Shown piece by piece: positions 12,960 through 36,695 of a stretch of DNA of 41,171 bases; the stretch's first letter is position 1, and each line of letters opens with the position of its first letter. This stretch comes from a virus (taxonomy: Duplodnaviria; Heunggongvirae; Uroviricota; Caudoviricetes). The translations under genes and the position numbers were made by a program. The notes beneath the pieces were generated by a model. The model made no database searches. It was not told where the DNA came from and saw only the letters and a list, made by a program, of their open reading frames with translations. Where the stretch lies: positions 1 through 41,171 of the IMG/VR virus record IMGVR_UViG_2778261424_000010. One strand, 5' to 3'.

Positions 12960-13129
12960 AATCAACCAGCCATAATTTAACCGTCGTCGGAGTTGAACGC
13001 CCGACGGTAAGACTTCTGCGCATTTAAGGGGACTTAAATGCGACCACAATATGAACTTCTCACCTTGTCACAGATGCAGAAATGCACCTGCGATTTTCTG
13101 TATTCTGCGTTACCTCTCGGAGGTGGCGT

Positions 13130-13567
13130 ATGAAACAGCCTGTTTTCTACCTCCGCGACGAACGCGTTCGCGATAACCTCATCGACTACATCAGGAAGCT
13201 GCCTGTTAACGACGCTCTGCCGCTCGTGGTGAAGTTTTCTGAGGCTGACCGCACTCTCGCCCAAAACGACCTCTTCCACGCTCTCTGTGGCGATACAGCG
13301 AAGCAATTGCAATGGGCTGGCAAGTCGCGCGACCTCGCTTCATGGAAAGTCCTGTATGTCTCAGGCCATGCCATTGCCACCGGTAAGCCTGGTGAAGTGG
13401 TGCCGGGTCTGGAAGGGGAGTTCTGCGCCATCCGGGAAAGCACTGCGAAGATGGGCATCCGTCGCATGACCAGTCTCATCGAATACAGCCAGGCATTTGC
13501 TGTGCAAAACGGCGTGCAACTCCGTGAAGTTCGCTACTCAGGTGATTACTTCGGGAGGGTTGCGTAA
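13130..13567 (+). CDS. ninB: NinB (Orf-family recombination protein)
   Basis: MKQPVFYLRDERVRDNLIDYIRKLP... resembles lambda NinB; nin-region context. Confidence 0.7.
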   Translation: MKQPVFYLRDERVRDNLIDYIRKLPVNDALPLVVKFSEADRTLAQNDLFHALCGDTAKQLQWAGKSRDLASWKVLYVSGHAIATGKPGEVVPGLEGEFCAIRESTAKMGIRRMTSLIEYSQAFAVQNGVQLREVRYSGDYFGRVA

Positions 13568-13737
13568 TGGCTAGCCCTCTCGCTCGCATCATCACCAACG
13601 AAATCTACCGGGTCCGGACACGCACTAAGCGCAAGCCTGAACTCAAGCCATCCGAAATCCCATCACTGCTCGGCTACACCGCGCGACTGACCCAGGTGAA
13701 ATGGGATCGCCTGAAAGCGCGGAGGTCACATGGCTAA
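13567..13737 (+). CDS. ninE: NinE-like small basic protein
   Basis: 56-aa hand-translated ORF (…KRKPELKPSEIP…VKWDRLKARR) between ninB and ybcO-like gene. Confidence 0.45.
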   Translation: MASPLARIITNEIYRVRTRTKRKPELKPSEIPSLLGYTARLTQVKWDRLKARRSHG

Positions 13738-14020
13738 TTTATGCAAAGCGGCACGCGGCCGCGATTGTCAGGTGCGGATCCCCGGCGTATGCAACGGCAA
13801 TCCTGAAACCTCAGTACTGGCTCACATACGTCTTGCTGGTCTATGCGGGACCGGAATCAAGCCGCCTGACCTGATCGCCACCATCGCATGCAGCAGTTGC
13901 CACGACGAGATTGATCGCCGCACCCGTCTGGTCGATGCGGAATTTGCAAAGGAGTGCGCGCTGGAAGGCATGGCTCGCACGCAGGTCATCTGGCTTAAAG
14001 AGGGGCTCGTGAAAGCATGA
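13730..14020 (+). CDS. YbcO-like (DUF1364) putative metal-dependent nuclease
   Basis: 96-aa Cys-rich ORF ([11 protein letters not shown]..., [11 protein letters not shown]) upstream of rusA. Confidence 0.5.
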
Positions 14021-14379
14021 ATGAATACCGCATTAGCCTCCCGTGGCCGCCGAGCAACAACCGCTACTACCGGCATAACCGCGGGCGCACGCACATCAGC
14101 ACAGAGGGGCAGGCGTACCGCGACAGTGTCGCCAGAATCATCAAAGACTCAATGCTGGATATCGGCCTGGCTACACCCGTGAAAATCCGCATTGAGTGCC
14201 ACATGCCGGATCGCCGTCGCCGTGACCTGGATAATCTGCAAAAGGCCGCTTTTGACGCACTCACCAAAGCAGGTTTCTGGCTGGACGATGCTCAGGTCGT
14301 TGATTATCGCGTTGTGAAGATGCCCGTTACCAAAGGTGGAAAGCTGGAACTGACAATCACCGGGCTGGAGGCCGTATGA
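14017..14379 (+). CDS. rusA: RusA Holliday-junction resolvase
   Basis: 120-aa ORF; [11 protein letters not shown]... and [13 protein letters not shown] motifs typical of RusA. Confidence 0.85.
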
Positions 14380-14512
14380 CATTTGAATCCTGTTTTTCCG
14401 ATCACCTCCGCGTTCGCTGGCAGCGGCTTCGCTTATACCACTTTCCCGGCTCTGTGCTAACGGACTACCGGATACTGAAGAATTACGTGAAAACTTATGC
14501 TGGAGAAGCGCT

Positions 14513-15295
14513 ATGAACCTTGAAAACACAGTGAAATACCACTTCGCTAAATCCACACTGATTAGCGATTCTCCGCGCGCTACCGCCTCCGATTCACTGA
14601 CCGGTACCGACATAATGGCTGCCATGGGCATGACGCAGGAACGCGCCGCAATGGGTTACAGCGCCTTCCTCGGCAAGATGGGCATAAGCAATAACGACCG
14701 GGATCGGGCGATCGGTCTGCTGGCTGAGTACGCGATGACAAAATGCGACAAGGTTGCCGCACTGCGTAAGCTCGGTGCCGCGGTTAAACCTCAGGTGATG
14801 CACCAGTTGGCCACCTTCGCTTTTGAGGACTATTCCCGCAGCGCTGCCAGCGTGAAGCAGTGCGATTGTTGTGACGGTCAGGGCTTCATTGAGGCTGACG
14901 TGTTTACCAATAAATTCCGTAAGCCAGAAGGGAGAATGACCGTGTCCGGGATGGTGAAGGTCAAAGAATCCATCAAAGTGCTATGCAAAAAGTGTAATGG
15001 CTCTGGTGTGGTTAGTGCTTCTTGCAGTGATTGCCATGGGCGCGGCAAGGCAGTGAACCAGGCTCTTACTGAGAAACAGGGCGTTCCTGTTCTGGCTGAC
15101 TGTAAGCGCTGCGGAGGGCGTGGGTATGAACGACTTCCGTCGACTGAAGCCTATGCTGCTGTATGCCAGATTACTGACGCCATTAGCCTGGACACCTGGA
15201 AAAAGTCTGTTAAGCCATTCTACGACCTGCTGATCACGAAATTTGATATCGAAGAGTCCTGGGCCGAAAAACAGCTTAAGCAGATAACGCGGTAA
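14513..15295 (+). CDS. Putative late-gene antiterminator (Q-like) with four CxxCxGxG zinc-finger repeats
   Basis: Position between rusA and lysis cassette; followed by terminator; CDCCDGQG, CKKCNGSG, CSDCHGRG, CKRCGGRG repeats. Confidence 0.5.
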   Translation: MNLENTVKYHFAKSTLISDSPRATASDSLTGTDIMAAMGMTQERAAMGYSAFLGKMGISNNDRDRAIGLLAEYAMTKCDKVAALRKLGAAVKPQVMHQLATFAFEDYSRSAASVKQCDCCDGQGFIEADVFTNKFRKPEGRMTVSGMVKVKESIKVLCKKCNGSGVVSASCSDCHGRGKAVNQALTEKQGVPVLADCKRCGGRGYERLPSTEAYAAVCQITDAISLDTWKKSVKPFYDLLITKFDIEESWAEKQLKQITR

Positions 15296-15394
15296 CGCCT
15301 ATAGCGATAGCCTATGATTTTGTCTTGGGCTATTTACTTTTCCCGAATCTGTGTTAATTTTGTCCCAACGATGGGTTAATGCCTTCGTTTCAAG

Positions 15395-15422
15395 CCCTGC
15401 GGATAACACCGTGGGGTTTTTT
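15395..15422 (+). terminator. Rho-independent terminator (tR'-like) downstream of Q-like gene
   Basis: CCCUGCGG-AUAACA-CCGUGGGG hairpin followed by UUUUUU. Confidence 0.55.
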
Positions 15423-15499
15423 GCGTTTCTGGAGACAGCAATACCAAGGTTCGAGACATTCAGGTAAAATTGATGCATTACAGGATGTGAGGTTGGGGA

Positions 15500-16069
15500 A
15501 TGAATAATCTACCCGATGATTACTTTTTGGATGCGGACGACGAACTCGTTGCTTTTCTGGAGAAGCAGGGCGAGGATTGTATACGCGAAATTCACCAGTC
15601 CAACGCACTAAACAAAGAAAATGGCCAGAAGTTATTGAGTATACTCATTGCTGGCGTGGGCTCGTCATTTTTGTTATTAACGCAACGTACAGGTTTTGAT
15701 TACCTCACCGCTGGAATGTCTGTTTTTTTAGTCTACTGGGCAATGTGTGCGGCTTATCTTGTTCGCTGCGTCCTCGTTGTAAGGTCACGAGCTCTCGTGT
15801 CATCGACACCCTATGCGCTTTACCATGATGGCTATAAAGGGTTTACTGAAGATGATTACACTGGTTTTGAGTCGAAAGGATTTTCAGGAAAGCGTTCAAC
15901 ATTGAACGTCTTGCGGCGCTACCGGCTTGCGGATTTAACCAGAATGGCTGAAATGAGTAAAAAAGAGAATGCCAGAATAGGCCGAGAACTAGAAAGGGTA
16001 AGGATCGCTACAATCCTCACCCCTGTTTGTGCACTTGTAATCTCAGTACTTACTTACCTTTTTTTCTGA
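15500..16069 (+). CDS. Cargo gene in Q-to-lysis slot: 189-aa predicted three-TM membrane protein
   Basis: Lies between late terminator and holin; hydrophobic segments at about aa 45-60, 73-94 and C-terminus. Confidence 0.5.
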   Translation: MNNLPDDYFLDADDELVAFLEKQGEDCIREIHQSNALNKENGQKLLSILIAGVGSSFLLLTQRTGFDYLTAGMSVFLVYWAMCAAYLVRCVLVVRSRALVSSTPYALYHDGYKGFTEDDYTGFESKGFSGKRSTLNVLRRYRLADLTRMAEMSKKENARIGRELERVRIATILTPVCALVISVLTYLFF

Positions 16070-16199
16070 TGTTTTCAGCAGAATCGGCAACAAAGGTATA
16101 ACCTGTCCTCAGATTTCTTTCGGCTGGCTGTGGAGCCGGTTTAGGCTGTGGTGCGGGTTGAGGCTTATTTTCTCCAGATGGTTTGTTTGATTCACTCAT
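16050..16199 (-). CDS. Small Pro-rich antisense ORF (49 aa), hypothetical
   Basis: Hand-translated MSESNKPSGENKPQPAPQPKPAPQPAERNL...; GGAGA SD 6 nt upstream of ATG. Confidence 0.25.
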   Translation of the reverse strand: MSESNKPSGENKPQPAPQPKPAPQPAERNLRTGYTFVADSAENIRKKGK

Positions 16200-16292
16200 A
16201 TAATTCTCCATGTTTGATAGGGTTATTTTTGGCGATTTAACGATATCAAATACAGTGATTTGCTGCTAGAGCATGCACTTATCTATAACTCG

Positions 16293-16320
16293 CCCCGGCA
16301 CCCGCTGGGGCTTTTTTATT
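16293..16320 (+). terminator. Rho-independent terminator upstream of holin
   Basis: CCCCGGC-ACCC-GCTGGGG hairpin followed by CTTTTTTATTT. Confidence 0.45.
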
Positions 16321-16433
16321 TCCGGCTCACGGTAATCATCCGCTACGTGCTTTGTTGATAAATCCAACCCGTGAAGCCTGAGCCTATTTCCCCTCATACC
16401 TGAGAGGACTCACAGCAATTAAGAGGGGGCTAA

Positions 16434-16820
16434 ATGTCCGATCCAATTTCCGGTACTGGGCTGGCTGGTGGTGCCCTGACGGGTGCCAGTGTTTATGGAC
16501 TGCTGACCGGAACTGATTACGGCGTTGTATTTGGCGCATTTGCAGGGGCTGTATTCTACATAGCAACAGCAGCGGATCTGAGCGCATCGCGCCGACTGGC
16601 ATATTTTATCGTGTCGTATATTGCCGGGATCCTTTGCTCTGGGTTGGTTGGCTCCAAGCTGGCAAGCTTGACCGGATACAGTGATAAACCTCTGGATGCC
16701 ATTGGTGCCGTAATCGTATCTGCTTTAGCCGTTAAGATCCTGACGTTCCTGAATAATCAGGATATCGGGTCGCTGGTGGCGCTCATAACGCGCCGGGGAG
16801 GTTCAGGTGGAGCTAAATGA
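16434..16820 (+). CDS. Holin
   Basis: 128-aa Gly/Ala-rich multi-TM protein at head of lysis cassette. Confidence 0.65.
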   Translation: MSDPISGTGLAGGALTGASVYGLLTGTDYGVVFGAFAGAVFYIATAADLSASRRLAYFIVSYIAGILCSGLVGSKLASLTGYSDKPLDAIGAVIVSALAVKILTFLNNQDIGSLVALITRRGGSGGAK

Positions 16821-17088
16821 CCCGACAGCAACTATAAACGCGCTGTTATGTGCTTGTGTTGTTATTACTCTGATGTTTTATCGTCGTGGTGATTCGCGGC
16901 ATCGTCCTTGGGTTTCACGTTTAGCCTGGCTGATTACTGTTACATACAGTGCTGTTCCGTTGGCCTATCTCTGTGGGATTTATCCCCATTCCTCATGGCC
17001 CATTATCGTGGCGAATACTATTTTTCTTTCCGTGCTGGTGGCCGTCAGAGGCAACGTTGCACGCCTGGTTGATCATCTGAGGCACTAA
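16807..17088 (+). CDS. Holin-like / lysis-associated membrane protein
   Basis: 93-aa hydrophobic ORF between holin and endolysin. Confidence 0.5.
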   Translation: MELNDPTATINALLCACVVITLMFYRRGDSRHRPWVSRLAWLITVTYSAVPLAYLCGIYPHSSWPIIVANTIFLSVLVAVRGNVARLVDHLRH

Positions 17089-17702
17089 TGAACCAACAAT
17101 TATTTCAAAAGGCGGCTGGTATCAGCGCCGGACTGGCTGTGCGCTGGTTTCAACCAGTAGATGCAGCGATGAAAGAATTCGGCATTACAGCACCCGCGGA
17201 TCAGGCCATGTTCATCGCTCAGGTAGGTCATGAGTCAGGCGGCTTTAGCGCTGTAGTTGAAAATTTGAACTACACACCATCTGCGCTGGTGGCGACCTTC
17301 GGAAAGAGGATCACACAGCAGCAGGCTGATGCGCTTGGCAGAACAACCGAACACGCAGCCCGCCAGGATGCTATCGCCAATCTGGTGTATAGCAACCGCC
17401 TGGGTAACAAAGCGCCCGGCGACGGCTGGAAATATCGCGGCAGAGGGTTAATTCAAATCACTGGCCTCGACAATTATCGCACCTGCGGGGCTGCTCTGAA
17501 GTTAGATTTGGTGACTTCACCTGAACAACTGGAACAGGAACTACAGGCTGCGCGCTCAGCTGCATGGTTCTACACCTCTAAAGGCTGCATGATCTACGGT
17601 GCCGATATTAATCGTGTTACTCGCATCATTAACGGCGGTCTGAACGGTATTGAGGATCGTAAGGTCCGATACAACAAGGCGCGGGCGGCGCTGCTGGTAT
17701 GA
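17088..17702 (+). CDS. Endolysin (GH19 chitinase-like lysozyme)
   Basis: FIAQVGHESGGF and GRGLIQITG motifs typical of GH19 phage endolysins. Confidence 0.8.
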   Translation: MNQQLFQKAAGISAGLAVRWFQPVDAAMKEFGITAPADQAMFIAQVGHESGGFSAVVENLNYTPSALVATFGKRITQQQADALGRTTEHAARQDAIANLVYSNRLGNKAPGDGWKYRGRGLIQITGLDNYRTCGAALKLDLVTSPEQLEQELQAARSAAWFYTSKGCMIYGADINRVTRIINGGLNGIEDRKVRYNKARAALLV

Positions 17703-18091
17703 AGATGAGTTATTGGGCGCTCATTTTAACGTTTATTGCTTGTATTGCTGGTGGTCTTGTCTGGTCAGCGAATCATTACCATGGAAAGTTTCTGGAGGAA
17801 CAGCGGCGCGCTGACGATGCAGAACAGCGCGCTGATTCCTTTGAGACCATCACCGCGAATGTCCTGCGCACCGTAGCAATAACGAACATCATTCTGGAGA
17901 CAAATCAATATGCCAGGCAGCAGATCGCACTGGAGTCACAGAGAACCGAGAACGATATCAAGGCTGCTGTTGCGGATGATGATTGTGCTGTTCGTGTTGT
18001 GCCTGCTGGCGCAGTTAAGCGGCTGCACGAATACGCGAACGGTCTTCGTGCCGGTTCCGGTAGTTCCGTTACCAGCCAGCCTGACGGCTGA
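17699..18091 (+). CDS. Rz-like i-spanin
   Basis: N-terminal TM (YWALILTFIACIAGGLVW) then coiled-coil; follows endolysin. Confidence 0.7.
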   Translation: MKMSYWALILTFIACIAGGLVWSANHYHGKFLEEQRRADDAEQRADSFETITANVLRTVAITNIILETNQYARQQIALESQRTENDIKAAVADDDCAVRVVPAGAVKRLHEYANGLRAGSGSSVTSQPDG

Positions 18092-30643: not shown

Positions 30644-30831
30644 CCTTCAACAGCCTGCCGGGCGGTGAAGATTTTATTCTTCGCCCGGCGCTTGCCTTCC
30701 ATATTGACCAGAAAGACCTTAACAGCGGTGCGGTAGACCTTTGCCGCATCGCGCTTCTCAATGACTACCTCGACATGCGCGAGGATAACGACGCCCGGGT
30801 AGATAAATGGAGAGCGGCCAATGAGCGGTAA
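30218..30831 (+). CDS. Tail assembly chaperone, predicted -1 frameshift-extended form
   Basis: A_AAT_TTT heptamer at 30589-30595; -1 frame open from there to TAA at 30829-30831. Confidence 0.45.
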
Positions 30832-33088
30832 CGCAGATACGATTAAAGATTTCCTTGTTTCGCTGGGATTCGATATCGATCAGGCTGGCGCTAATAAGTT
30901 TGAAGCCGTGCTGAAAGGCGTTACAGCTAACGTTCTGAAGGTCGGCGCGGTGGTGGAAGGCGCAGCGCTGAGCATTGTCGGATTTACCACTCAGATCGCG
31001 AACGGTCTGGATAAAATTTACTGGGCATCCCAGCGGACGGGGGCCAGTGTCCAGGGCATCAAAGCGCTGGGATACGCCGCATCGCAAACCGGTGCCAGCG
31101 CCGAGTCGGCTATGTCCTCCCTCGAAGGGCTGGCCGGTTTCATGCGTAGCAATCCGGGCGCGGAAGGCTTCCTGAACCGCCTGGGCGTCCAGACTCGCGA
31201 TGCCAGCGGAAAGATGCGTGATACTGCGGCCATCTTTACTGGCGTTGGGCAAAAGCTCAACAACATGCCGTATTACCGCGCGAAACAATACGCGCAGATG
31301 CTTGGCATCGATGAAAACACGCTGATGGCGATGCGGCGCGGCATGAATGGCTTTACCGCCGATTACCAGTCGATGCTGCAAAAGACAGGGTTCAACGCTG
31401 ATAAAGCGGCTGTTCAGTCCAACAAATTCATGACGTCCATGCGCGGGCTTACGTCGCTGTTCGGCATCATGCGGGACAAGATCGGCTCAAACCTCGCTGG
31501 TGGCCTGGCTGGTTCGCTGGACAGCCTGCGGCGGCGCATCCTCGACAATTTCCCGAAGATTGAAGAGACGCTGACCAGAGTTATTAAAGGCGTGATCTGG
31601 CTTGCGAACGCATTCACGAGAATGGCGTGGCGGCTGATACAGGGCGCTGGCTCTGTCATCGACTGGTGGAAGCGTCTTGACGATGGCAGTAAAAATCTGC
31701 TGAAAATATTCGGTGCTCTACTTGTCGCATGGCGTCTGCTTAATTCTGCGTTCCTGAAATCCCCGATTGGAATTATCACCACGCTGATTCTGGCGATCGG
31801 ATTACTCTATGACGATTATCAGACGTGGAAAGAAGGCGGTAAAAGCCTGATTGACTGGTCCAAGTGGGAGCCTGCAATAGAAAAGGCGAAAAAGGCAATT
31901 CTCTGGCTGCGCGATAAGCTTCTGGGGCTGAAAGATTCTGTTGGTGGATGGCAGAACTCGCTGGAAATTTTGGCTACTTTCATCGCTGGGGTATGGGTAA
32001 CAAAAGTATTGGGAGCATTCGCAAAAATATCCGGTCTTCCGATACCTCCATGGCTTAAATTATGGGGAGCGTATGCTGGTTACCTGGTTTCAGATCGTGA
32101 AAACATAAAAGCCAGTGCTAAATCATCTTTGGACTATACCAAAAGGAACATTGGTGATGCTCTTGCTACGGTTGGCATCAAAACCGACCTTGGGCGAAAA
32201 GATGTTAGCGAGGTAAGAGAATGGCCCGCATGGATGGATTGGCTGCATGGTGGCCCAGGTAAGATTATTCGTCAGGCGCAAAGCAATGGCGTCGTTTATG
32301 GCGATAATGTTCAGCCTGACATTCCCGGGGCGGAACAGCATGTTCGTAGTAATGAAATTGCCCCGCATGAAAGAGATGAAATAAAAAACCGTCAGCAGGC
32401 TGCTAATGGTTATCTTGAAAAAATCTCAGACGGGATTGCCAAAATCGGTAATTTATTTTTCTCCCCGGTTGGAGCTGCTGAAATCTCTCCAAATATATCG
32501 GGTGACCCCTCCCAGTTTGCGCAATCAGTCAAACGTCCACAGGCCACAGCCCAGGGCAAAGTATTGCTCGACTGGATGGGGCCAATGTTCAATAAACTTG
32601 AGTCGCTTTATCAACTTCCAGCTGGTCTATTGAAAAGTGTGGCGATAACCGAGTCAGGTGGTAACCAGTTCGCCATGTCCGGCGCAGGCGCGAAAGGTCT
32701 GTTTCAGTTTATGGATGGTACGGCGCGCGACATGGGCCTTCGCGGAAACGATGTATTCGACCCGCAAAAGTCAGCTCAGGCCGCAGCTAAGTACCTCAGC
32801 CAGCTGTTGCGGCAGAACGGCGGAGACCTTAGCAAAGCACTGGCATCATATAACTGGGGGATCGGGAATGTTAAGCGCTATGGCATGGGGTTAATGCCGC
32901 AGGAAACGCGTAACTACATTCCGAAAGTAATGAGCAACATGCCCACCAGCGCCCCGGTGATTCAGCAGGAAACGAATATTAACATCCACGGCGTTTCCGA
33001 TCCGCGCGAGGCTGCCCGTTTGACTGTTGATCGTCAAAAGGGCGTGAATTCACAGTTAACCCAGCAACTCCCCGCAGGACCGAGATAA
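30821..33088 (+). CDS. Tape measure protein with C-terminal lytic transglycosylase (SLT-like) domain
   Basis: 755-aa ORF; C-terminal …ITESGGNQF…GLFQFMDGTARDMG…YNWG… resembles SLT catalytic motifs. Confidence 0.75.
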   Translation: MSGNADTIKDFLVSLGFDIDQAGANKFEAVLKGVTANVLKVGAVVEGAALSIVGFTTQIANGLDKIYWASQRTGASVQGIKALGYAASQTGASAESAMSSLEGLAGFMRSNPGAEGFLNRLGVQTRDASGKMRDTAAIFTGVGQKLNNMPYYRAKQYAQMLGIDENTLMAMRRGMNGFTADYQSMLQKTGFNADKAAVQSNKFMTSMRGLTSLFGIMRDKIGSNLAGGLAGSLDSLRRRILDNFPKIEETLTRVIKGVIWLANAFTRMAWRLIQGAGSVIDWWKRLDDGSKNLLKIFGALLVAWRLLNSAFLKSPIGIITTLILAIGLLYDDYQTWKEGGKSLIDWSKWEPAIEKAKKAILWLRDKLLGLKDSVGGWQNSLEILATFIAGVWVTKVLGAFAKISGLPIPPWLKLWGAYAGYLVSDRENIKASAKSSLDYTKRNIGDALATVGIKTDLGRKDVSEVREWPAWMDWLHGGPGKIIRQAQSNGVVYGDNVQPDIPGAEQHVRSNEIAPHERDEIKNRQQAANGYLEKISDGIAKIGNLFFSPVGAAEISPNISGDPSQFAQSVKRPQATAQGKVLLDWMGPMFNKLESLYQLPAGLLKSVAITESGGNQFAMSGAGAKGLFQFMDGTARDMGLRGNDVFDPQKSAQAAAKYLSQLLRQNGGDLSKALASYNWGIGNVKRYGMGLMPQETRNYIPKVMSNMPTSAPVIQQETNINIHGVSDPREAARLTVDRQKGVNSQLTQQLPAGPR

Positions 33089-33690
33089 TGGATATTTTAT
33101 CAGCGATTTTTCGCCAGCAATCCCGGCGAATTGGCCTGCTGATCCCCAGCGTGGTCGTCTCCGAAAAGCATTCTGATGTGCTCGAAATTACTGAGCACCC
33201 GGTGGAGAAGCCAACAACGAATAGCGCTTCGGGCTTCATCGCCGATCATGCGTATAAGCGCCCCAGCGAAGTCACAATGGAATGCGGCTTCGCTGGTGGC
33301 GGTTCGTTGCTGGACTTCATTGATACATCTTCAATCGGCCTCAGCGCCGGACTTAGCCCGAAAGAGACCTATCAGCAACTACTGGATCTCCAGTCCTCTC
33401 GGGTGCCGTTCGATGTAGTGACCGGAAAGCGGGTTTACAGCAATATGCTGGTGCGAGCCATCGAGGTGACAACGGATAAAACCAGCGAGAACGTGCTGAA
33501 CTGCACGCTTACCCTGCGTGAAGTGATCATGTCGCAGACGCAGAGCGTTAGCGTTGCAGATAAATCAGATATGCAGGATGGCGTCAGCACATCGGCGGTG
33601 CAGAATTCCGGGATGAAATCCACTACACCGCCAAACGAATCCTTGCTGAGCCAGCTGGGCGGAAGCGTTACATCAGCATTCGGGGGATGA
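33088..33690 (+). CDS. Tail/baseplate assembly protein candidate
   Basis: 200-aa coupled ORF after tape measure. Confidence 0.4.
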   Translation: MDILSAIFRQQSRRIGLLIPSVVVSEKHSDVLEITEHPVEKPTTNSASGFIADHAYKRPSEVTMECGFAGGGSLLDFIDTSSIGLSAGLSPKETYQQLLDLQSSRVPFDVVTGKRVYSNMLVRAIEVTTDKTSENVLNCTLTLREVIMSQTQSVSVADKSDMQDGVSTSAVQNSGMKSTTPPNESLLSQLGGSVTSAFGG

Positions 33691-33691
33691 T

Positions 33692-33997
33692 ATGCAGTTT
33701 AACGAAATACCGCTTTCTCCTGACAATCAGCAGTTCCGCGTTTTGCTGGGCAATACCACGTATACACTCAGGATCATCTGGCGTGATGCGGCTGGCTGGA
33801 TTATGGACGTGATGGATAGCGGCGGTGCTGCGCTTCTTTCTGGCGTACCTCTCCTGACCGGCGTGAACCTATTACGACAATATCCACAGCTTGGCATTGA
33901 TGGCGCGCTGGTGGTGGCGACCGATAAGGGCGCACCAGACGAGCCCACCAAAACCAACCTCGGCACATACAGCCACCTCATTTTCGTACAGGAGTAG
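33692..33997 (+). CDS. Tail/baseplate assembly protein candidate
   Basis: 101-aa coupled ORF. Confidence 0.35.
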   Translation: MQFNEIPLSPDNQQFRVLLGNTTYTLRIIWRDAAGWIMDVMDSGGAALLSGVPLLTGVNLLRQYPQLGIDGALVVATDKGAPDEPTKTNLGTYSHLIFVQE

Positions 33998-33999
33998 AA

Positions 34000-35064
34000 A
34001 TGTCTCTTAACTGGATGCGCCATTTTGAGCTGCAACTGTTGGACCAGAACGGGCAGGGCGTTTCCCTGTCTGACTTTAAGGTCACGTTCCAGATCGAGTG
34101 GGCAGACACACGCTGGCCACGCGTGGCGAACGTGAAAATTTACAACCTTTCGACCGATACCACGAACAAGATACTGGGGCAGGAGTTTGCAAAAATTCGC
34201 ATCATTGCCGGGTATGACGGTATTGCGCCGGATGTTGATGCGAGCCAGGTTGGTGTCGCCCGGGAGATTTCACCAGACCAGGTAGGGCAGGTGAACGGTC
34301 AGAACTACGGCCTGATATTTGACGGTGATATTCGCTTCACCGTCACCGGGAAGGACAACATCACCGATTCCTGGGTGCTGATTCAGGCCATCAGTAACCA
34401 CGAAGCGTTCCTCTACGCGACTACCATCACCACGCTTGCCGCTGGTTATACCGTTGCGGACCTGCACCGGGCGACTATGCAGGATTTCAACGCGTTCGGC
34501 GTGACGCAGGGCATTACCGGTGACTTTCCTGATACCGTGTTTCCTCGTGGCCGTGCGATTTATTCATCCACCCGTAACGTGATGGATAATATTGCTGCGC
34601 AGTGCAAAGCGACATGGCAGCTGGTGGATGGTCAGGTCCAGATGGTGCCGGAGGATAAATATATTCACGAAGCCATTGTGTTGAATGCCGATACTGGCCT
34701 GATCGGTATGCCGCAACAAACGATGGGCGGCGGCGTAAACGTGCGGTGCCTGATAAACCCAAACATCCGTATTAATGGTCTTATCCAGCTCGATCAGGCT
34801 TCGGTGTACCGCGCCGCGCTCGGCAATAGCGAAATCGCACAGTCGCCCGGGCGTATCACCGAAACAGAAGAGAACGGCAACCGTGTGCTGACCGGCACGA
34901 CGTCACAGGCTGCCAGCATTGCGACGGATGGCGTTTATATCGTCAAAGCTATCGACTATACTGGCGACACCAGAGGTCAGGCGTGGTACATGGATTTGAT
35001 GTGTTTTGCGCGTGGCGCTCGTGATCTTTATAGCCCGAAAGCAATGCAAGGGACGACGAATTAG
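34000..35064 (+). CDS. Baseplate hub/late-control-D-like protein candidate
   Basis: 354-aa ORF in baseplate series. Confidence 0.4.
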   Translation: MSLNWMRHFELQLLDQNGQGVSLSDFKVTFQIEWADTRWPRVANVKIYNLSTDTTNKILGQEFAKIRIIAGYDGIAPDVDASQVGVAREISPDQVGQVNGQNYGLIFDGDIRFTVTGKDNITDSWVLIQAISNHEAFLYATTITTLAAGYTVADLHRATMQDFNAFGVTQGITGDFPDTVFPRGRAIYSSTRNVMDNIAAQCKATWQLVDGQVQMVPEDKYIHEAIVLNADTGLIGMPQQTMGGGVNVRCLINPNIRINGLIQLDQASVYRAALGNSEIAQSPGRITETEENGNRVLTGTTSQAASIATDGVYIVKAIDYTGDTRGQAWYMDLMCFARGARDLYSPKAMQGTTN

Positions 35065-35076
35065 TGAGGTGGGGCC

Positions 35077-35421
35077 GTGAGACATTTACTTTGCACTGTT
35101 ACCGTGTTCGCGGTGCTTATATCAGCACCCGCTTTTGCGGATCAGCAATGTGGTGATTTTAAAATCCATTGGGCAGATGATGGCTTAGCCAGAATCAATG
35201 GCGCAAAGCCAGAAATGCAAAAAATCACCTTCCTGAAAAACAAAGGCGATTATAACAATATCAAGATGGATTGGCGTATGGCTACCGATCAGCCTGGAAG
35301 ATGGGTTGGTCTTGAGTACATCAATCGAAACGGCAAAGCCATTCTCAACGCACAGTGGTTGCAAGCCAGCATGGATTCGCCGCGTCAGTATGCAACATAC
35401 GACTGCCGAAAAGTAAAATAG
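35077..35421 (+). CDS. Cargo gene: secreted/periplasmic 114-aa protein with Sec signal peptide
   Basis: GTG start after GAGGTGGGG; signal peptide MRHLLCTVTVFAVLISAPAFA|DQQ; two Cys; AT-rich. Confidence 0.5.
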   Translation: MRHLLCTVTVFAVLISAPAFADQQCGDFKIHWADDGLARINGAKPEMQKITFLKNKGDYNNIKMDWRMATDQPGRWVGLEYINRNGKAILNAQWLQASMDSPRQYATYDCRKVK

Positions 35422-35439
35422 CCCGCCAGATAGGCGGGC
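35411..35439 (-). terminator. Rho-independent terminator for minus-strand cargo gene
   Basis: GCCCGCC-AGATAG-GCGGGC hairpin with U-tract on minus strand. Confidence 0.45.
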
Positions 35440-35444
35440 ATGCG

Positions 35445-35735
35445 TCAAAAATATTGAGCTTTAATTATAATAAACACAATAATTACGAACAGGATGTTTC
35501 TAATTATTTTTTGCTTATGAGTAAGTTGTTTTTTTTCTGTCGATTTCCCGGGAGAGTAAAGGTTAGTGGTATGCGACAGCCCCGTGCCGGGAAGGCCATT
35601 TGTCATCTTTACGCCTTTTTTTCCGATGTTAATGGTGGAACCTTTACCACCAATTGAAGTGCTTACTCCGCTTTTACTAATGTTGATCGCGAGTCCGGGC
35701 GCAATCCGGATTCTTTTACGAAATCTAAATCCCAT
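35445..35735 (-). CDS. Cargo gene: DUF4236-like small protein with C-terminal hydrophobic anchor
   Basis: MGFRFRKRIRIAPGLAINISKSGVSTSIGGKG N-terminus (DUF4236-like by memory); C-terminal ILFVIIVFIIIKAQYF; very AT-rich. Confidence 0.5.
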   Translation of the reverse strand: MGFRFRKRIRIAPGLAINISKSGVSTSIGGKGSTINIGKKGVKMTNGLPGTGLSHTTNLYSPGKSTEKKQLTHKQKIIRNILFVIIVFIIIKAQYF

Positions 35736-35922
35736 TTGTTACTCCTGTAGTCAATAATGCGATGGTGCAGGTCCACTCTATGGCGGCTTCATGGCTGAAA
35801 TTGATTTTCAATGCTTACTTGTTGCAAACATATCCTAATACACCTTGTGAATGTGTGCCATTGCAGCGGAAAAGCCTTACTTCACACTGATGTAGCTTAG
35901 TTACTAAGAGATAATTGATACC

Positions 35923-35947
35923 AAACCAGCTTCGGCTGGTTTTTTTA
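35923..35947 (+). terminator. Rho-independent terminator just upstream of gpV-like gene
   Basis: AAACCAGC-TTCG-GCTGGTTT hairpin followed by TTTT. Confidence 0.55.
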
Positions 35948-35957
35948 TGGGGGTTTT

Positions 35958-36695
35958 ATGCCAATTCCAACTCAATCACAGATCGGGGGTGAGCAGCAGA
36001 CCGCGCAGGCCATTGCCGATTCGGTGTCTACCCAGATGCGCGTAGCGATGCCCGGCATCATTCAGTCGTTCGATCCTGACACTGTTACCTGCACAGTAGA
36101 GGTAGCGCTTCGCGGTATTGTTGGCGATGGCTCCACCGAATTAAAACCGCTGGTGGATGTGCCGGTTATCTTCCCGCGCGGCGGCGGTTGCACGCTGACC
36201 TTTCCGGTAAAAGAAGGCGACGAGTGCCTGCTGATCTTTGCCGACCGTTGCATCGATTTCTGGTGGCAGAGCGGCGGCGTTCAGGAGACCGTCGACCCGC
36301 GCCAGCATGACTTATCTGATGCGTTCGCCATCGTTGGCCCGCAGTCGAAAGCGCAGAAAATAAGCGGTATCAGTACCAGCGCCGCGCAGCTGCGCAGCGA
36401 CGACGGAAGCTCGTTCTTTGAGCTCAACCCCACTACGCAGAAAATTAAAATCGTAGCGCCTGGCGGTCTGGAAGTGGTTACCCCGCTGGCCGACTTCTCG
36501 GCGAAAGTTACCATTCACGGGCTCCTTTCCTGGCTTGGTGGAATGGTGGGTTCTGTTGCTTCTGGCGTTGCATCCAAAATCACTGGCGCTGTCGAGTTTA
36601 TCGGCACCGTTAAAGCTAACGGTAAGTCAATTGATGATACGCACACTCATGGAGGCGTGCAGCATGGCACCAGCAACACAGACGGGGTGAACTGA
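35958..36695 (+). CDS. Baseplate spike / gpV-like protein
   Basis: 245-aa ORF; position before gpW/gpJ-like genes. Confidence 0.5.
   Translation: MPIPTQSQIGGEQQTAQAIADSVSTQMRVAMPGIIQSFDPDTVTCTVEVALRGIVGDGSTELKPLVDVPVIFPRGGGCTLTFPVKEGDECLLIFADRCIDFWWQSGGVQETVDPRQHDLSDAFAIVGPQSKAQKISGISTSAAQLRSDDGSSFFELNPTTQKIKIVAPGGLEVVTPLADFSAKVTIHGLLSWLGGMVGSVASGVASKITGAVEFIGTVKANGKSIDDTHTHGGVQHGTSNTDGVN

Follow-up and report, generated by a model that had tools for sequence, protein, structure and literature searches.

Hotspots for accessory genes and morons are already well established in phage genomes. The locus described here adds an example from another phage clade and another genomic position: it lies between the baseplate hub and spike genes of an Escherichia coli prophage from IMG/VR (record IMGVR_UViG_2778261424_000010, Caudoviricetes), whose full 41,171 nt are called the window below. 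Two convergent genes occupy this interval, one for a 114-amino-acid (aa) predicted exported protein and the other for a 96-aa protein with a DUF4236 domain (Table 1). Among the closest described systems, exclusion by gp15 of phage HK97 is reportedly the work of Cumby et al. 2012, and the Z/fun and old/tin hotspots of phage P2 are said to have been described by Rousset et al. 2022.

One article (PMC3594210) presents HK97 gp15 as a small, moron-encoded inner-membrane protein that is YebO-like, mediates superinfection exclusion, and is encoded between the gene for the tail chaperone and that for the tape-measure protein (TMP). The same source gives the traits of morons in the sense of Juhala and Hendrix, which are DNA that is extra relative to related phages, a differing base composition, a promoter and a factor-independent terminator of their own, and expression from a repressed prophage. 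According to a preprint (bioRxiv 10.1101/2024.10.15.618418) that describes the P2 hotspots again, Z/fun adjoins a baseplate gene.

Comparison of related loci reveals a slot with a fixed gene for an exported protein on its left, exchangeable cargo in the middle, and a conserved predicted terminator on its right. We hold this architectural reading with considerable confidence, and the hotspot belongs to a clade of Enterobacterales prophages that are myoviruses with lambdoid regulation. The fuller explanation, in which the slot is a moron-type accessory hotspot whose genes would be expressed in the lysogen and take part in exclusion, is one that we favor with moderate confidence.

The slot between the hub and spike genes

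In the window, a series of tail genes that runs through TMP, Dit, plug, and hub and then continues with gpV, gpW, and gpJ is broken by two open reading frames (ORFs) that converge at a distance of 23 nt. The first-pass annotation had described them as AT-rich, and its coordinates proved exact. The GC fraction is 0.455 in the exported-protein gene, 0.388 in the DUF4236 gene, and 0.41 in the spacer that follows, compared with 0.543 in the hub gene and 0.568 in gpV. Both ORFs are judged from database evidence to be genuine genes rather than chance ORFs, because the shorter product matches the DUF4236 family in Pfam, the longer one matches phrog_3443 from end to end and has 86 homologues, and both are annotated by RefSeq in an E. 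coli prophage that is 99.7% identical to the window. This same annotation is the reason for taking the window to be an E. coli prophage. Among 5,426 complete E. coli genomes, 16 carry the whole island and 42 carry parts of it.

The loci compared came from eight annotated phages and 80 IMG/VR contigs, each encoding a relative of the 114-aa protein. The gene for this relative stands directly 3′ of the hub gene and 5′ of gpV in all 88 loci, so that the hub gene forms a conserved left flank throughout. The stretch from the exported-protein gene to gpV, followed in 84 loci, varies from 275 to 1714 bp and holds about 20 unrelated cassettes; a minus-strand DUF4236 gene is present in 18 of these loci, the window counted. 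DUF4236 proteins that are 100% identical at the aa level stand beside alleles of the exported protein that are 65%–99% identical to that of the window, and in the alignment of cassettes the recombination breakpoints fall within the conserved 3′ end of the exported-protein gene. Because one gene occurs in 88 of 88 loci and the other in 18 of 84, and because of this allele shuffling and these breakpoints, we regard the DUF4236 gene as exchangeable cargo and the exported-protein gene as the fixed left border of the slot.

The two genes had been proposed to form a cargo island that is a single unit. The notion of cargo holds for the DUF4236 gene, which can be swapped, but not for the exported-protein gene, and the notion of a unit is contradicted both by the mixing of alleles and by the pairing of the exported-protein gene with about 20 other cargo types. 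When the traits of morons are considered, the DUF4236 gene is present in some phages and replaced by other cassettes in close relatives, whereas the ubiquity of the exported-protein gene sets it apart from morons in this respect. The differing base composition described above is shared by both genes, and the predicted hairpin at 35421–35439, with its T-rich minus-strand tail, would provide a factor-independent terminator.

Other occupants of the slot include secreted proteins of 128 and 106 aa, a 116-aa minus-strand gene, proteins with multiple transmembrane (TM) segments, and an antirepressor-like gene. Cassettes of a Fic/Doc toxin with a Phd antitoxin are also found (Pfam E-values of 1.5e-11 and 1.9e-12), as is a pair of proteins of 258 and 123–130 aa that is possibly HEPN-like by motif inspection only and matches no Pfam family. 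Fic/Doc genes with antitoxins of the Phd/YefM type were seen in relatives L028, L036, L043, L049, L057, L078, and L088. A 185-aa multi-TM protein and a minus-strand gene with weak likeness to EACC1 occupy the slot in further loci.

The right border is marked by a hairpin with a T-run, whose stem (35923–35942) ends 15 nt 5′ of the gpV ATG. A hairpin and T-run are found at the same distance from gpV in 80 of 84 loci, regardless of which cargo is present and on which strand it is encoded. The stems differ among loci yet remain complementary (CCCGC/GCGGG, CCAGC/GCTGG, GCCGC/GCGGC, and GGTCGCA/TGCGGCC), and this conservation of structure argues for function. From these comparisons, the predicted terminator is a backbone feature of the right edge of the slot rather than a property of any one cassette. 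The first-pass annotation had credited the two genes with terminators of their own on both strands. This applies to the minus-strand hairpin, which is borne by the cassette, but not to the plus-strand one.

The predicted exported barrel and the DUF4236 protein

The gene for the 114-aa protein begins with a GTG codon 12 nt past the hub stop codon and has a ribosome-binding site, GAGGTGG, 5′ of this start. Its family is narrow. A profile search of 1.84 billion representatives yielded 56 clusters at 50% identity, in none of which was a Pfam domain found, and every named homologue returned by the first search comes from Enterobacterales. A Sec signal peptide and two cysteines had been noted at the outset, and both observations were borne out. 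The N terminus reads as the n-region MRH, a hydrophobic core LLCTVTVFAVLISAP (residues 4–18), and the signal peptidase I site AFA|D, as judged by inspection. In an alignment of 44 homologues the signal region is variable but ends in AxA, the mature protein starts with a conserved D-x-Q-C-G, and the two cysteines (C25 and C110) are invariant. Some homologues at the same genomic position carry a lipoprotein signal in place of the Sec signal, and this replacement also supports export. In the lipoprotein versions (loci L104–L106, protein P0207; also P0225), the barrel is joined to an N-terminal domain of about 190 aa and of unassigned family, and the gene is again in the position after the hub.

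An AlphaFold2 model built from the 44 sequences is an eight-stranded up-and-down β-barrel, with a mean predicted local distance difference test score (pLDDT) of 83 overall and of about 90 in the mature part. The protein is predicted on this basis to be an exported β-barrel of eight strands that is stapled by a disulfide. No match at E ≤ 0.001 was returned by Foldseek against viral models, and a profile search of the PDB gave only weak matches to avidin and chance matches to nanobodies.

The alleles of this protein are deeply diverged. When phages with hub and gpV genes at least 95% identical are compared, nucleotide identity drops to 36%–75% over a sharply bounded segment of about 35021–35320, which takes in the last hub codons and the first two-thirds of the exported-protein gene. 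Statistically, the allele types show no linkage to any of the tail genes, with an adjusted mutual information (AMI) of 0.11–0.21, whereas the structural genes remain linked to one another across the exported-protein gene (AMI of 0.84 for the hub and the gpV N terminus, and of 0.94 for Dit and gpJ). Against the tail-fiber tip the AMI is about 0, a comparison of low power because there are 37–46 types among 49 loci. The ratio of nonsynonymous to synonymous substitution rates (dN/dS) is approximately 0.15–0.18 and the median dS is 0.94, compared with 0.24 for the hub gene. Positive selection on the protein was considered and finds no support in this dN/dS. By these estimates the alleles are old, evolve under purifying selection, and are not changing rapidly. 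Such a pattern is compatible with types that are kept over long periods, and equally with sequence that is taken in passively from divergent relatives at a hotspot of recombination.

The 96-aa protein matches PF14020 with residues 3–55 aligned to model positions 1–54 of 55 (gathering cut-off of 27 bits), and the same N-terminal domain is found in nine PHROG families. Both the assignment to DUF4236 and the hydrophobic C-terminal anchor had been proposed earlier and hold up. An alignment of 51 homologues and an AlphaFold2 model (pLDDT of 81) show a β-meander of six strands at residues 7–60, which a basic linker of variable sequence connects to a TM helix at residues 73–95 with about five residues beyond it. 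The isoelectric point (pI) is 11.6, and residues 1–72 include 13 lysines or arginines and a single aspartate or glutamate. Because of the positive-inside rule, and because only about five residues follow the TM helix, we predict that the DUF4236 domain lies in the cytoplasm and that the protein has its tail anchor in the inner membrane. Relatives in which the TM segment is followed by an SH3_3 domain agree with this N-in topology. An envelope location had been claimed for both products. The region can indeed be described as nonstructural and envelope-directed, but the DUF4236 domain is predicted to be tethered to the membrane on its cytoplasmic side rather than exposed in the envelope.

Several other architectures of the domain were observed. 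As the N-terminal module of larger proteins (P0097, P0107, and P0143; Vibrio and Photobacterium chromosomes, L102 and L103), it forms DUF4236-TM-SH3_3 proteins of 167 aa in Vibrionaceae and is joined in other fusions to FtsK-gamma or, in Roseburia phage Shimadzu, to TM2. Protein P0086, from an NCBI contig of 3.5 kb, joins DUF4236 residues 1–39 to the last 27 residues of the exported protein, whose genes are on opposite strands, and P0093 is a variant of DUF4236 with stop-codon read-through. This chimera and this variant could each reflect a rearrangement or an assembly artifact.

Genes for DUF4236 proteins recur in the tail clusters of other phages. Hafnia, Klebsiella, and other E. coli phages carry them in the same hub-to-spike slot, with 51%–62% identity. 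In unrelated prophages (loci L092–L101 and L108), a lambda-like Leclercia prophage has such a gene between TMP and gpM, a Pseudomonas syringae prophage has one between gpK and gpI/J, and a metagenomic siphovirus has one between the tail chaperone and TMP, while a 401-aa DUF4236 protein is encoded 3′ of the hub gene in the Pasteurella element Pmp3. Small DUF4236-TM genes thus appear, from their genomic contexts, to be inserted recurrently into the tail-gene clusters of unrelated prophages. This is a new contextual lead for a family for which a literature search returned a single passing mention.

Transcription signals and surrounding genes

Two predicted terminators flank the DUF4236 cassette and its spacer (Table 1). 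The hairpin between the convergent genes has a T-rich tail, TATTTTACTT, on the minus strand only and lacks a T-run on the plus strand; in the alignment of variants it moves with the DUF4236 cassette. Because the tail is confined to the minus strand, the hairpin reads as a predicted intrinsic terminator of the DUF4236 transcript, and it would hinder transcription of the plus strand weakly, if at all. The hairpin before gpV has the opposite orientation, and late transcription would have to pass it. Read-through with the help of Q had been suggested as plausible, and it is a reasonable inference that Q-modified polymerase reads through the hairpins of the hotspot during late transcription, because the window encodes a lambda-type Q protein. 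The Q gene is located 5′ of the lysis and late genes, and its neighbors are NinB, YbcO, and RusA, followed by two holins and a GH19 endolysin.

Table 1. Positions of the features discussed, numbered from the first nucleotide of the window
Feature	Positions	Strand	Evidence or remarks
Gene for lambda-type Q antiterminator	14513..15295	+	PF03589, E 1.9e-45
Baseplate hub gene, E217 gp41-like	34000..35064	+	PF22759, E 6.6e-6, just under cut-off; NCBIfam orf58_phage_fam
Hypervariable segment, last hub codons and first two-thirds of exported-protein gene	35021..35320		Sharply bounded
Exported-protein gene (114 aa), fixed anchor of the hotspot	35077..35421	+	phrog_3443, E 6.9e-46, end to end
Predicted Sec signal peptide, residues 1–21	35077..35139	+	Cleavage AFA|DQQ; by inspection; Kyte-Doolittle maximum 2.24
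Hairpin between the convergent genes	35421..35439		7 GC pairs; -16.4/-16.7 kcal/mol; z about -3.9
Cargo gene for predicted tail-anchored DUF4236 protein (96 aa)	35445..35735	-	ATG start; PF14020, 73.6 bits, E 1.8e-20
Noncoding spacer, presumed DUF4236 promoter region	35736..35922		Distal part (about 35810–35922) conserved between cassette variants
Terminator-like hairpin and T-run	35923..35949	+	AAACCAGC-TTCG-GCTGGTTT; centroid energy -11.3 kcal/mol
Gene for gpV-type baseplate spike, conserved right flank	35958..36695	+	PF18352, E 1.1e-41; TIGR01644 weak match

The distal part of the spacer is retained between variants of the DUF4236 cassette that differ nearer to the gene, and it may serve as a promoter or in regulation, or may encode a small transcript. 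On the plus strand, positions 35863–35945 show a weak Rfam match to the Gifsy-1 small RNA (sRNA) isrK, which ends at the terminator (E 0.009). An isrK-like sRNA in the spacer was rejected as a candidate, since the match of 23.4 bits compares with a gathering threshold of 50 and probably reflects the terminator hairpin. A 42-aa plus-strand ORF at 35762–35890 was likewise rejected as a gene, being conserved only by virtue of the near-identical cassette and lost in variants L026 and L054.

The 5′ flank of the slot encodes a TMP that carries an SLT domain, then a Dit-like protein, a plug resembling Pam3 gp18, and the E217 gp41-like hub, and in the 3′ flank the gene for the gpV-type spike is followed by those for a gpW-like protein and a Baseplate_J protein. 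Together with the lambdoid early–late junction at 13082–18091 (NinB, YbcO, RusA, Q, two holins, and a GH19-type endolysin), which accompanies this contractile-tail baseplate of the Pam3/E217 type, these genes characterize the phage as a lambdoid-regulated myovirus. The SLT lytic-transglycosylase domain is at the C terminus of TMP (gene at 30821–33088; residues 589–689, E 1.9e-24) and is shared with several relatives.

The Dit-like C terminus and the plug gene (33341–33940) form a second mosaic patch. Among phages otherwise at least 95% identical, it occurs as two allele classes with 46%–80% nucleotide identity, and its class is uncorrelated with the allele of the exported protein. The C-terminal (apex) domain of gpV, encoded at 36380–36695, is also modular, with 11 types at 85% identity in 81 loci on a conserved N-terminal domain. 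The apex type of the window is shared with Yersinia phage YP3 and is not the commonest, and the Apex motif itself gives a weak match below threshold (E 0.027, 15 bits compared with a cut-off of 20.8). In Escherichia phage vB_EcoM-606R2 (L003, 1326–2390), the hub gene is present as two ORFs of 212 and 139 aa, which could be due to a frameshift or a sequencing error.

Functional readings and comparison with known systems

The explanation that we favor begins in the lysogen, where the accessory genes would be transcribed on their own, as the moron paradigm implies (PMC3594210), and where the terminator before gpV would shield the downstream tail genes from this accessory transcription. During lytic growth, Q-modified RNA polymerase would pass both hairpins. 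The DUF4236 protein might act from the inner membrane, in the manner of HK97 gp15, to exclude superinfecting phages at the stage of DNA entry or later, and the exported barrel might be a periplasmic binder or inhibitor that serves the prophage and its host rather than the virion. By analogy, exclusion or defense is possible rather than probable as the function of the DUF4236 protein, and any specific role for the barrel is less probable still.

Several points weigh against this explanation. A promoter-like character had been ascribed to the spacer, yet no sigma-70 match of at least 9/12 was found 5′ of the DUF4236 gene, where the best is ATGGCA-18-TAGGAT at 8/12. The sole candidate for the exported-protein gene, TTTATA-17-TATACT at 34934–34962, is inside the hub gene, and a convincing sigma-70 promoter was found for neither accessory gene. 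The close tie of the exported-protein gene to the late operon may mean that it is a late gene rather than one expressed in the lysogen, and its alleles could have diverged passively, through recombination at the edge of the hotspot. Neither protein matches a characterized family in Pfam, PHROG, or NCBIfam searches, and fold searches gave only generic matches (Z ≤ 7.6). PADLOC-DB v2 contains no match for DUF4236 or for three neighboring cargo proteins, and only a chance-level Cas11a match (E 0.045) for the exported protein. DUF4236 genes also occur at sites away from tail genes, such as the repressor–integrase interval of Roseburia phage Shimadzu and a position past the large terminase gene in a Microcystis phage, as well as in nonphage chromosomal settings, and the sample of contexts is small and skewed to relatives of the query.

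Other readings of the two genes must be weighed against the same evidence. If the exported and DUF4236 proteins were one cofunctional pair acquired together, either for exclusion or as toxin and immunity protein, the presence of the same convergent pair in the distant Klebsiella phages GZ7, RCIP0034, and Wanchaivirus would be readily explained, with aa identities of 39% for the exported protein and 51%–62% for DUF4236, as would its presence in Hafnia and the hairpin common to both genes. The unequal distribution of the two genes (88 of 88 and 18 of 84 loci), the identical DUF4236 proteins beside divergent exported-protein alleles with breakpoints at the 3′ end of that gene, and the tail modules of Leclercia, P. 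syringae, and the siphovirus that carry DUF4236 without a homologue of the exported protein make such a pair highly improbable. We consider it quite improbable, if slightly less so, that the 114-aa protein is an ordinary structural or assembly component of the tail or baseplate whose hydrophobic N terminus is no export signal. A strictly kept position in the baseplate cluster, the late-operon strand with a start just past the hub stop codon and a ribosome-binding site of its own, and purifying selection all speak for a part in the virion. They are opposed by a classical n-h-c signal with AxA that some homologues exchange for a lipoprotein signal, by two invariant cysteines at the barrel ends that suit an oxidizing compartment, and by allele types that are uncoupled from all the structural genes while these are coupled to each other across the gene. 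Homology to ordinary tail components had been named from the start as one point to check, and neither accessory protein matches a baseplate family of known function in Pfam or PHROG.

An alternative for the barrel that concedes export is a specific periplasmic inhibitor, whether of the lytic transglycosylase of the phage's own tail, of lysozyme, or of the phage receptor from the periplasmic side. Precedents are T4 Spackle for a tail lytic transglycosylase, MliC/PliC for lysozyme, and T5 Llp for a receptor approached from the periplasm. We regard such a role as unlikely in any of these specific forms. The exported-protein alleles do not covary with the TMP C terminus or the spike apex (AMI ≤ 0.21), so that a target encoded in cis was not detected, and MliC/PliC chains are absent among the top 60 structural matches of a protein that also matches no Pfam family, which leaves it outside the MliC/PliC lysozyme inhibitors by both family profile and specific structural match. 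For the DUF4236 protein, a membrane-active toxin, an abortive-infection effector, or a factor in host physiology and fitness, instead of exclusion, is a somewhat unlikely function. Its extreme basicity (pI 11.6) and predicted membrane tether, the toxin–antitoxin pairs among the alternative cargo, and the family fusions to SH3_3, TM2, or FtsK-gamma in nonphage contexts are consistent with it. Against it stand the solitary state of the gene, which has no partner antitoxin in the slot, and the lack of a PADLOC match. The recurrence of DUF4236 in tail-tip modules suggests a link to infection but does not discriminate between these readings.

A moron-type accessory hotspot between the hub and spike genes is the explanation that we carry forward. 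A bolder extension would see the DUF4236 family as widespread but unrecognized inner-membrane exclusion or defense factors of prophages, located in the tail-tip clusters of unrelated myoviruses and siphoviruses, whose cationic cytoplasmic β-sheet intercepts phage DNA or the tape-measure channel, and the phrog_3443 barrel as a new periplasmic exclusion or immunity protein with balanced alleles. This we put forward as a speculation that is doubtful at present.

Phage accessory hotspots are a productive source of new genes for defense and host conversion. The hub-to-spike hotspot delimited here is in a common prophage clade of Enterobacterales and offers about 20 cassettes, mostly for uncharacterized small envelope proteins, that can be mined. 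Repeated insertion in tail-tip modules provides a first contextual lead for DUF4236, and phrog_3443 emerges as a predicted exported protein that is kept throughout the clade yet uncoupled from the virion genes.

In comparison with known families, the 96-aa protein is a full-length match to PF14020, which has no assigned function, and the predicted barrel shares fold, size, export signal, and terminal disulfide with small periplasmic eight-stranded barrels such as the calycin/avidin-like proteins, MliC/PliC, and the immunity proteins of type VI secretion. Like HK97 gp15, the DUF4236 protein is a small, predicted inner-membrane protein encoded by an AT-rich insert with a terminator of its own in a lambdoid tail operon, and its relative in the siphovirus occupies the identical slot between chaperone and TMP. 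Unlike gp15, it does not belong to the YebO family and has no sequence relationship to it, since the Pfam scan matched the 96-aa protein to DUF4236 and no other family, and the 114-aa one to no family at all. Its TM segment is C-terminal with a predicted cytoplasmic β-sheet domain, and its gene is on the strand opposite the tail genes. The likeness to gp15 is one of position and protein type only, and exclusion is proposed here by analogy only.

The hotspots of P2 resemble the present one as fixed sites near baseplate or tail genes of a temperate myovirus where unrelated accessory or defense cassettes, toxin–antitoxin systems included, are interchanged. They differ in that the site described here belongs to another clade, which combines lambdoid early genes with a baseplate of the Pam3/E217 type, is positioned between hub and spike, and carries cargo consisting mostly of small envelope proteins. 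Its notable features, and a further difference from the P2 hotspots, are a fixed gene for a predicted exported protein on one border and a structurally conserved predicted terminator on the other.

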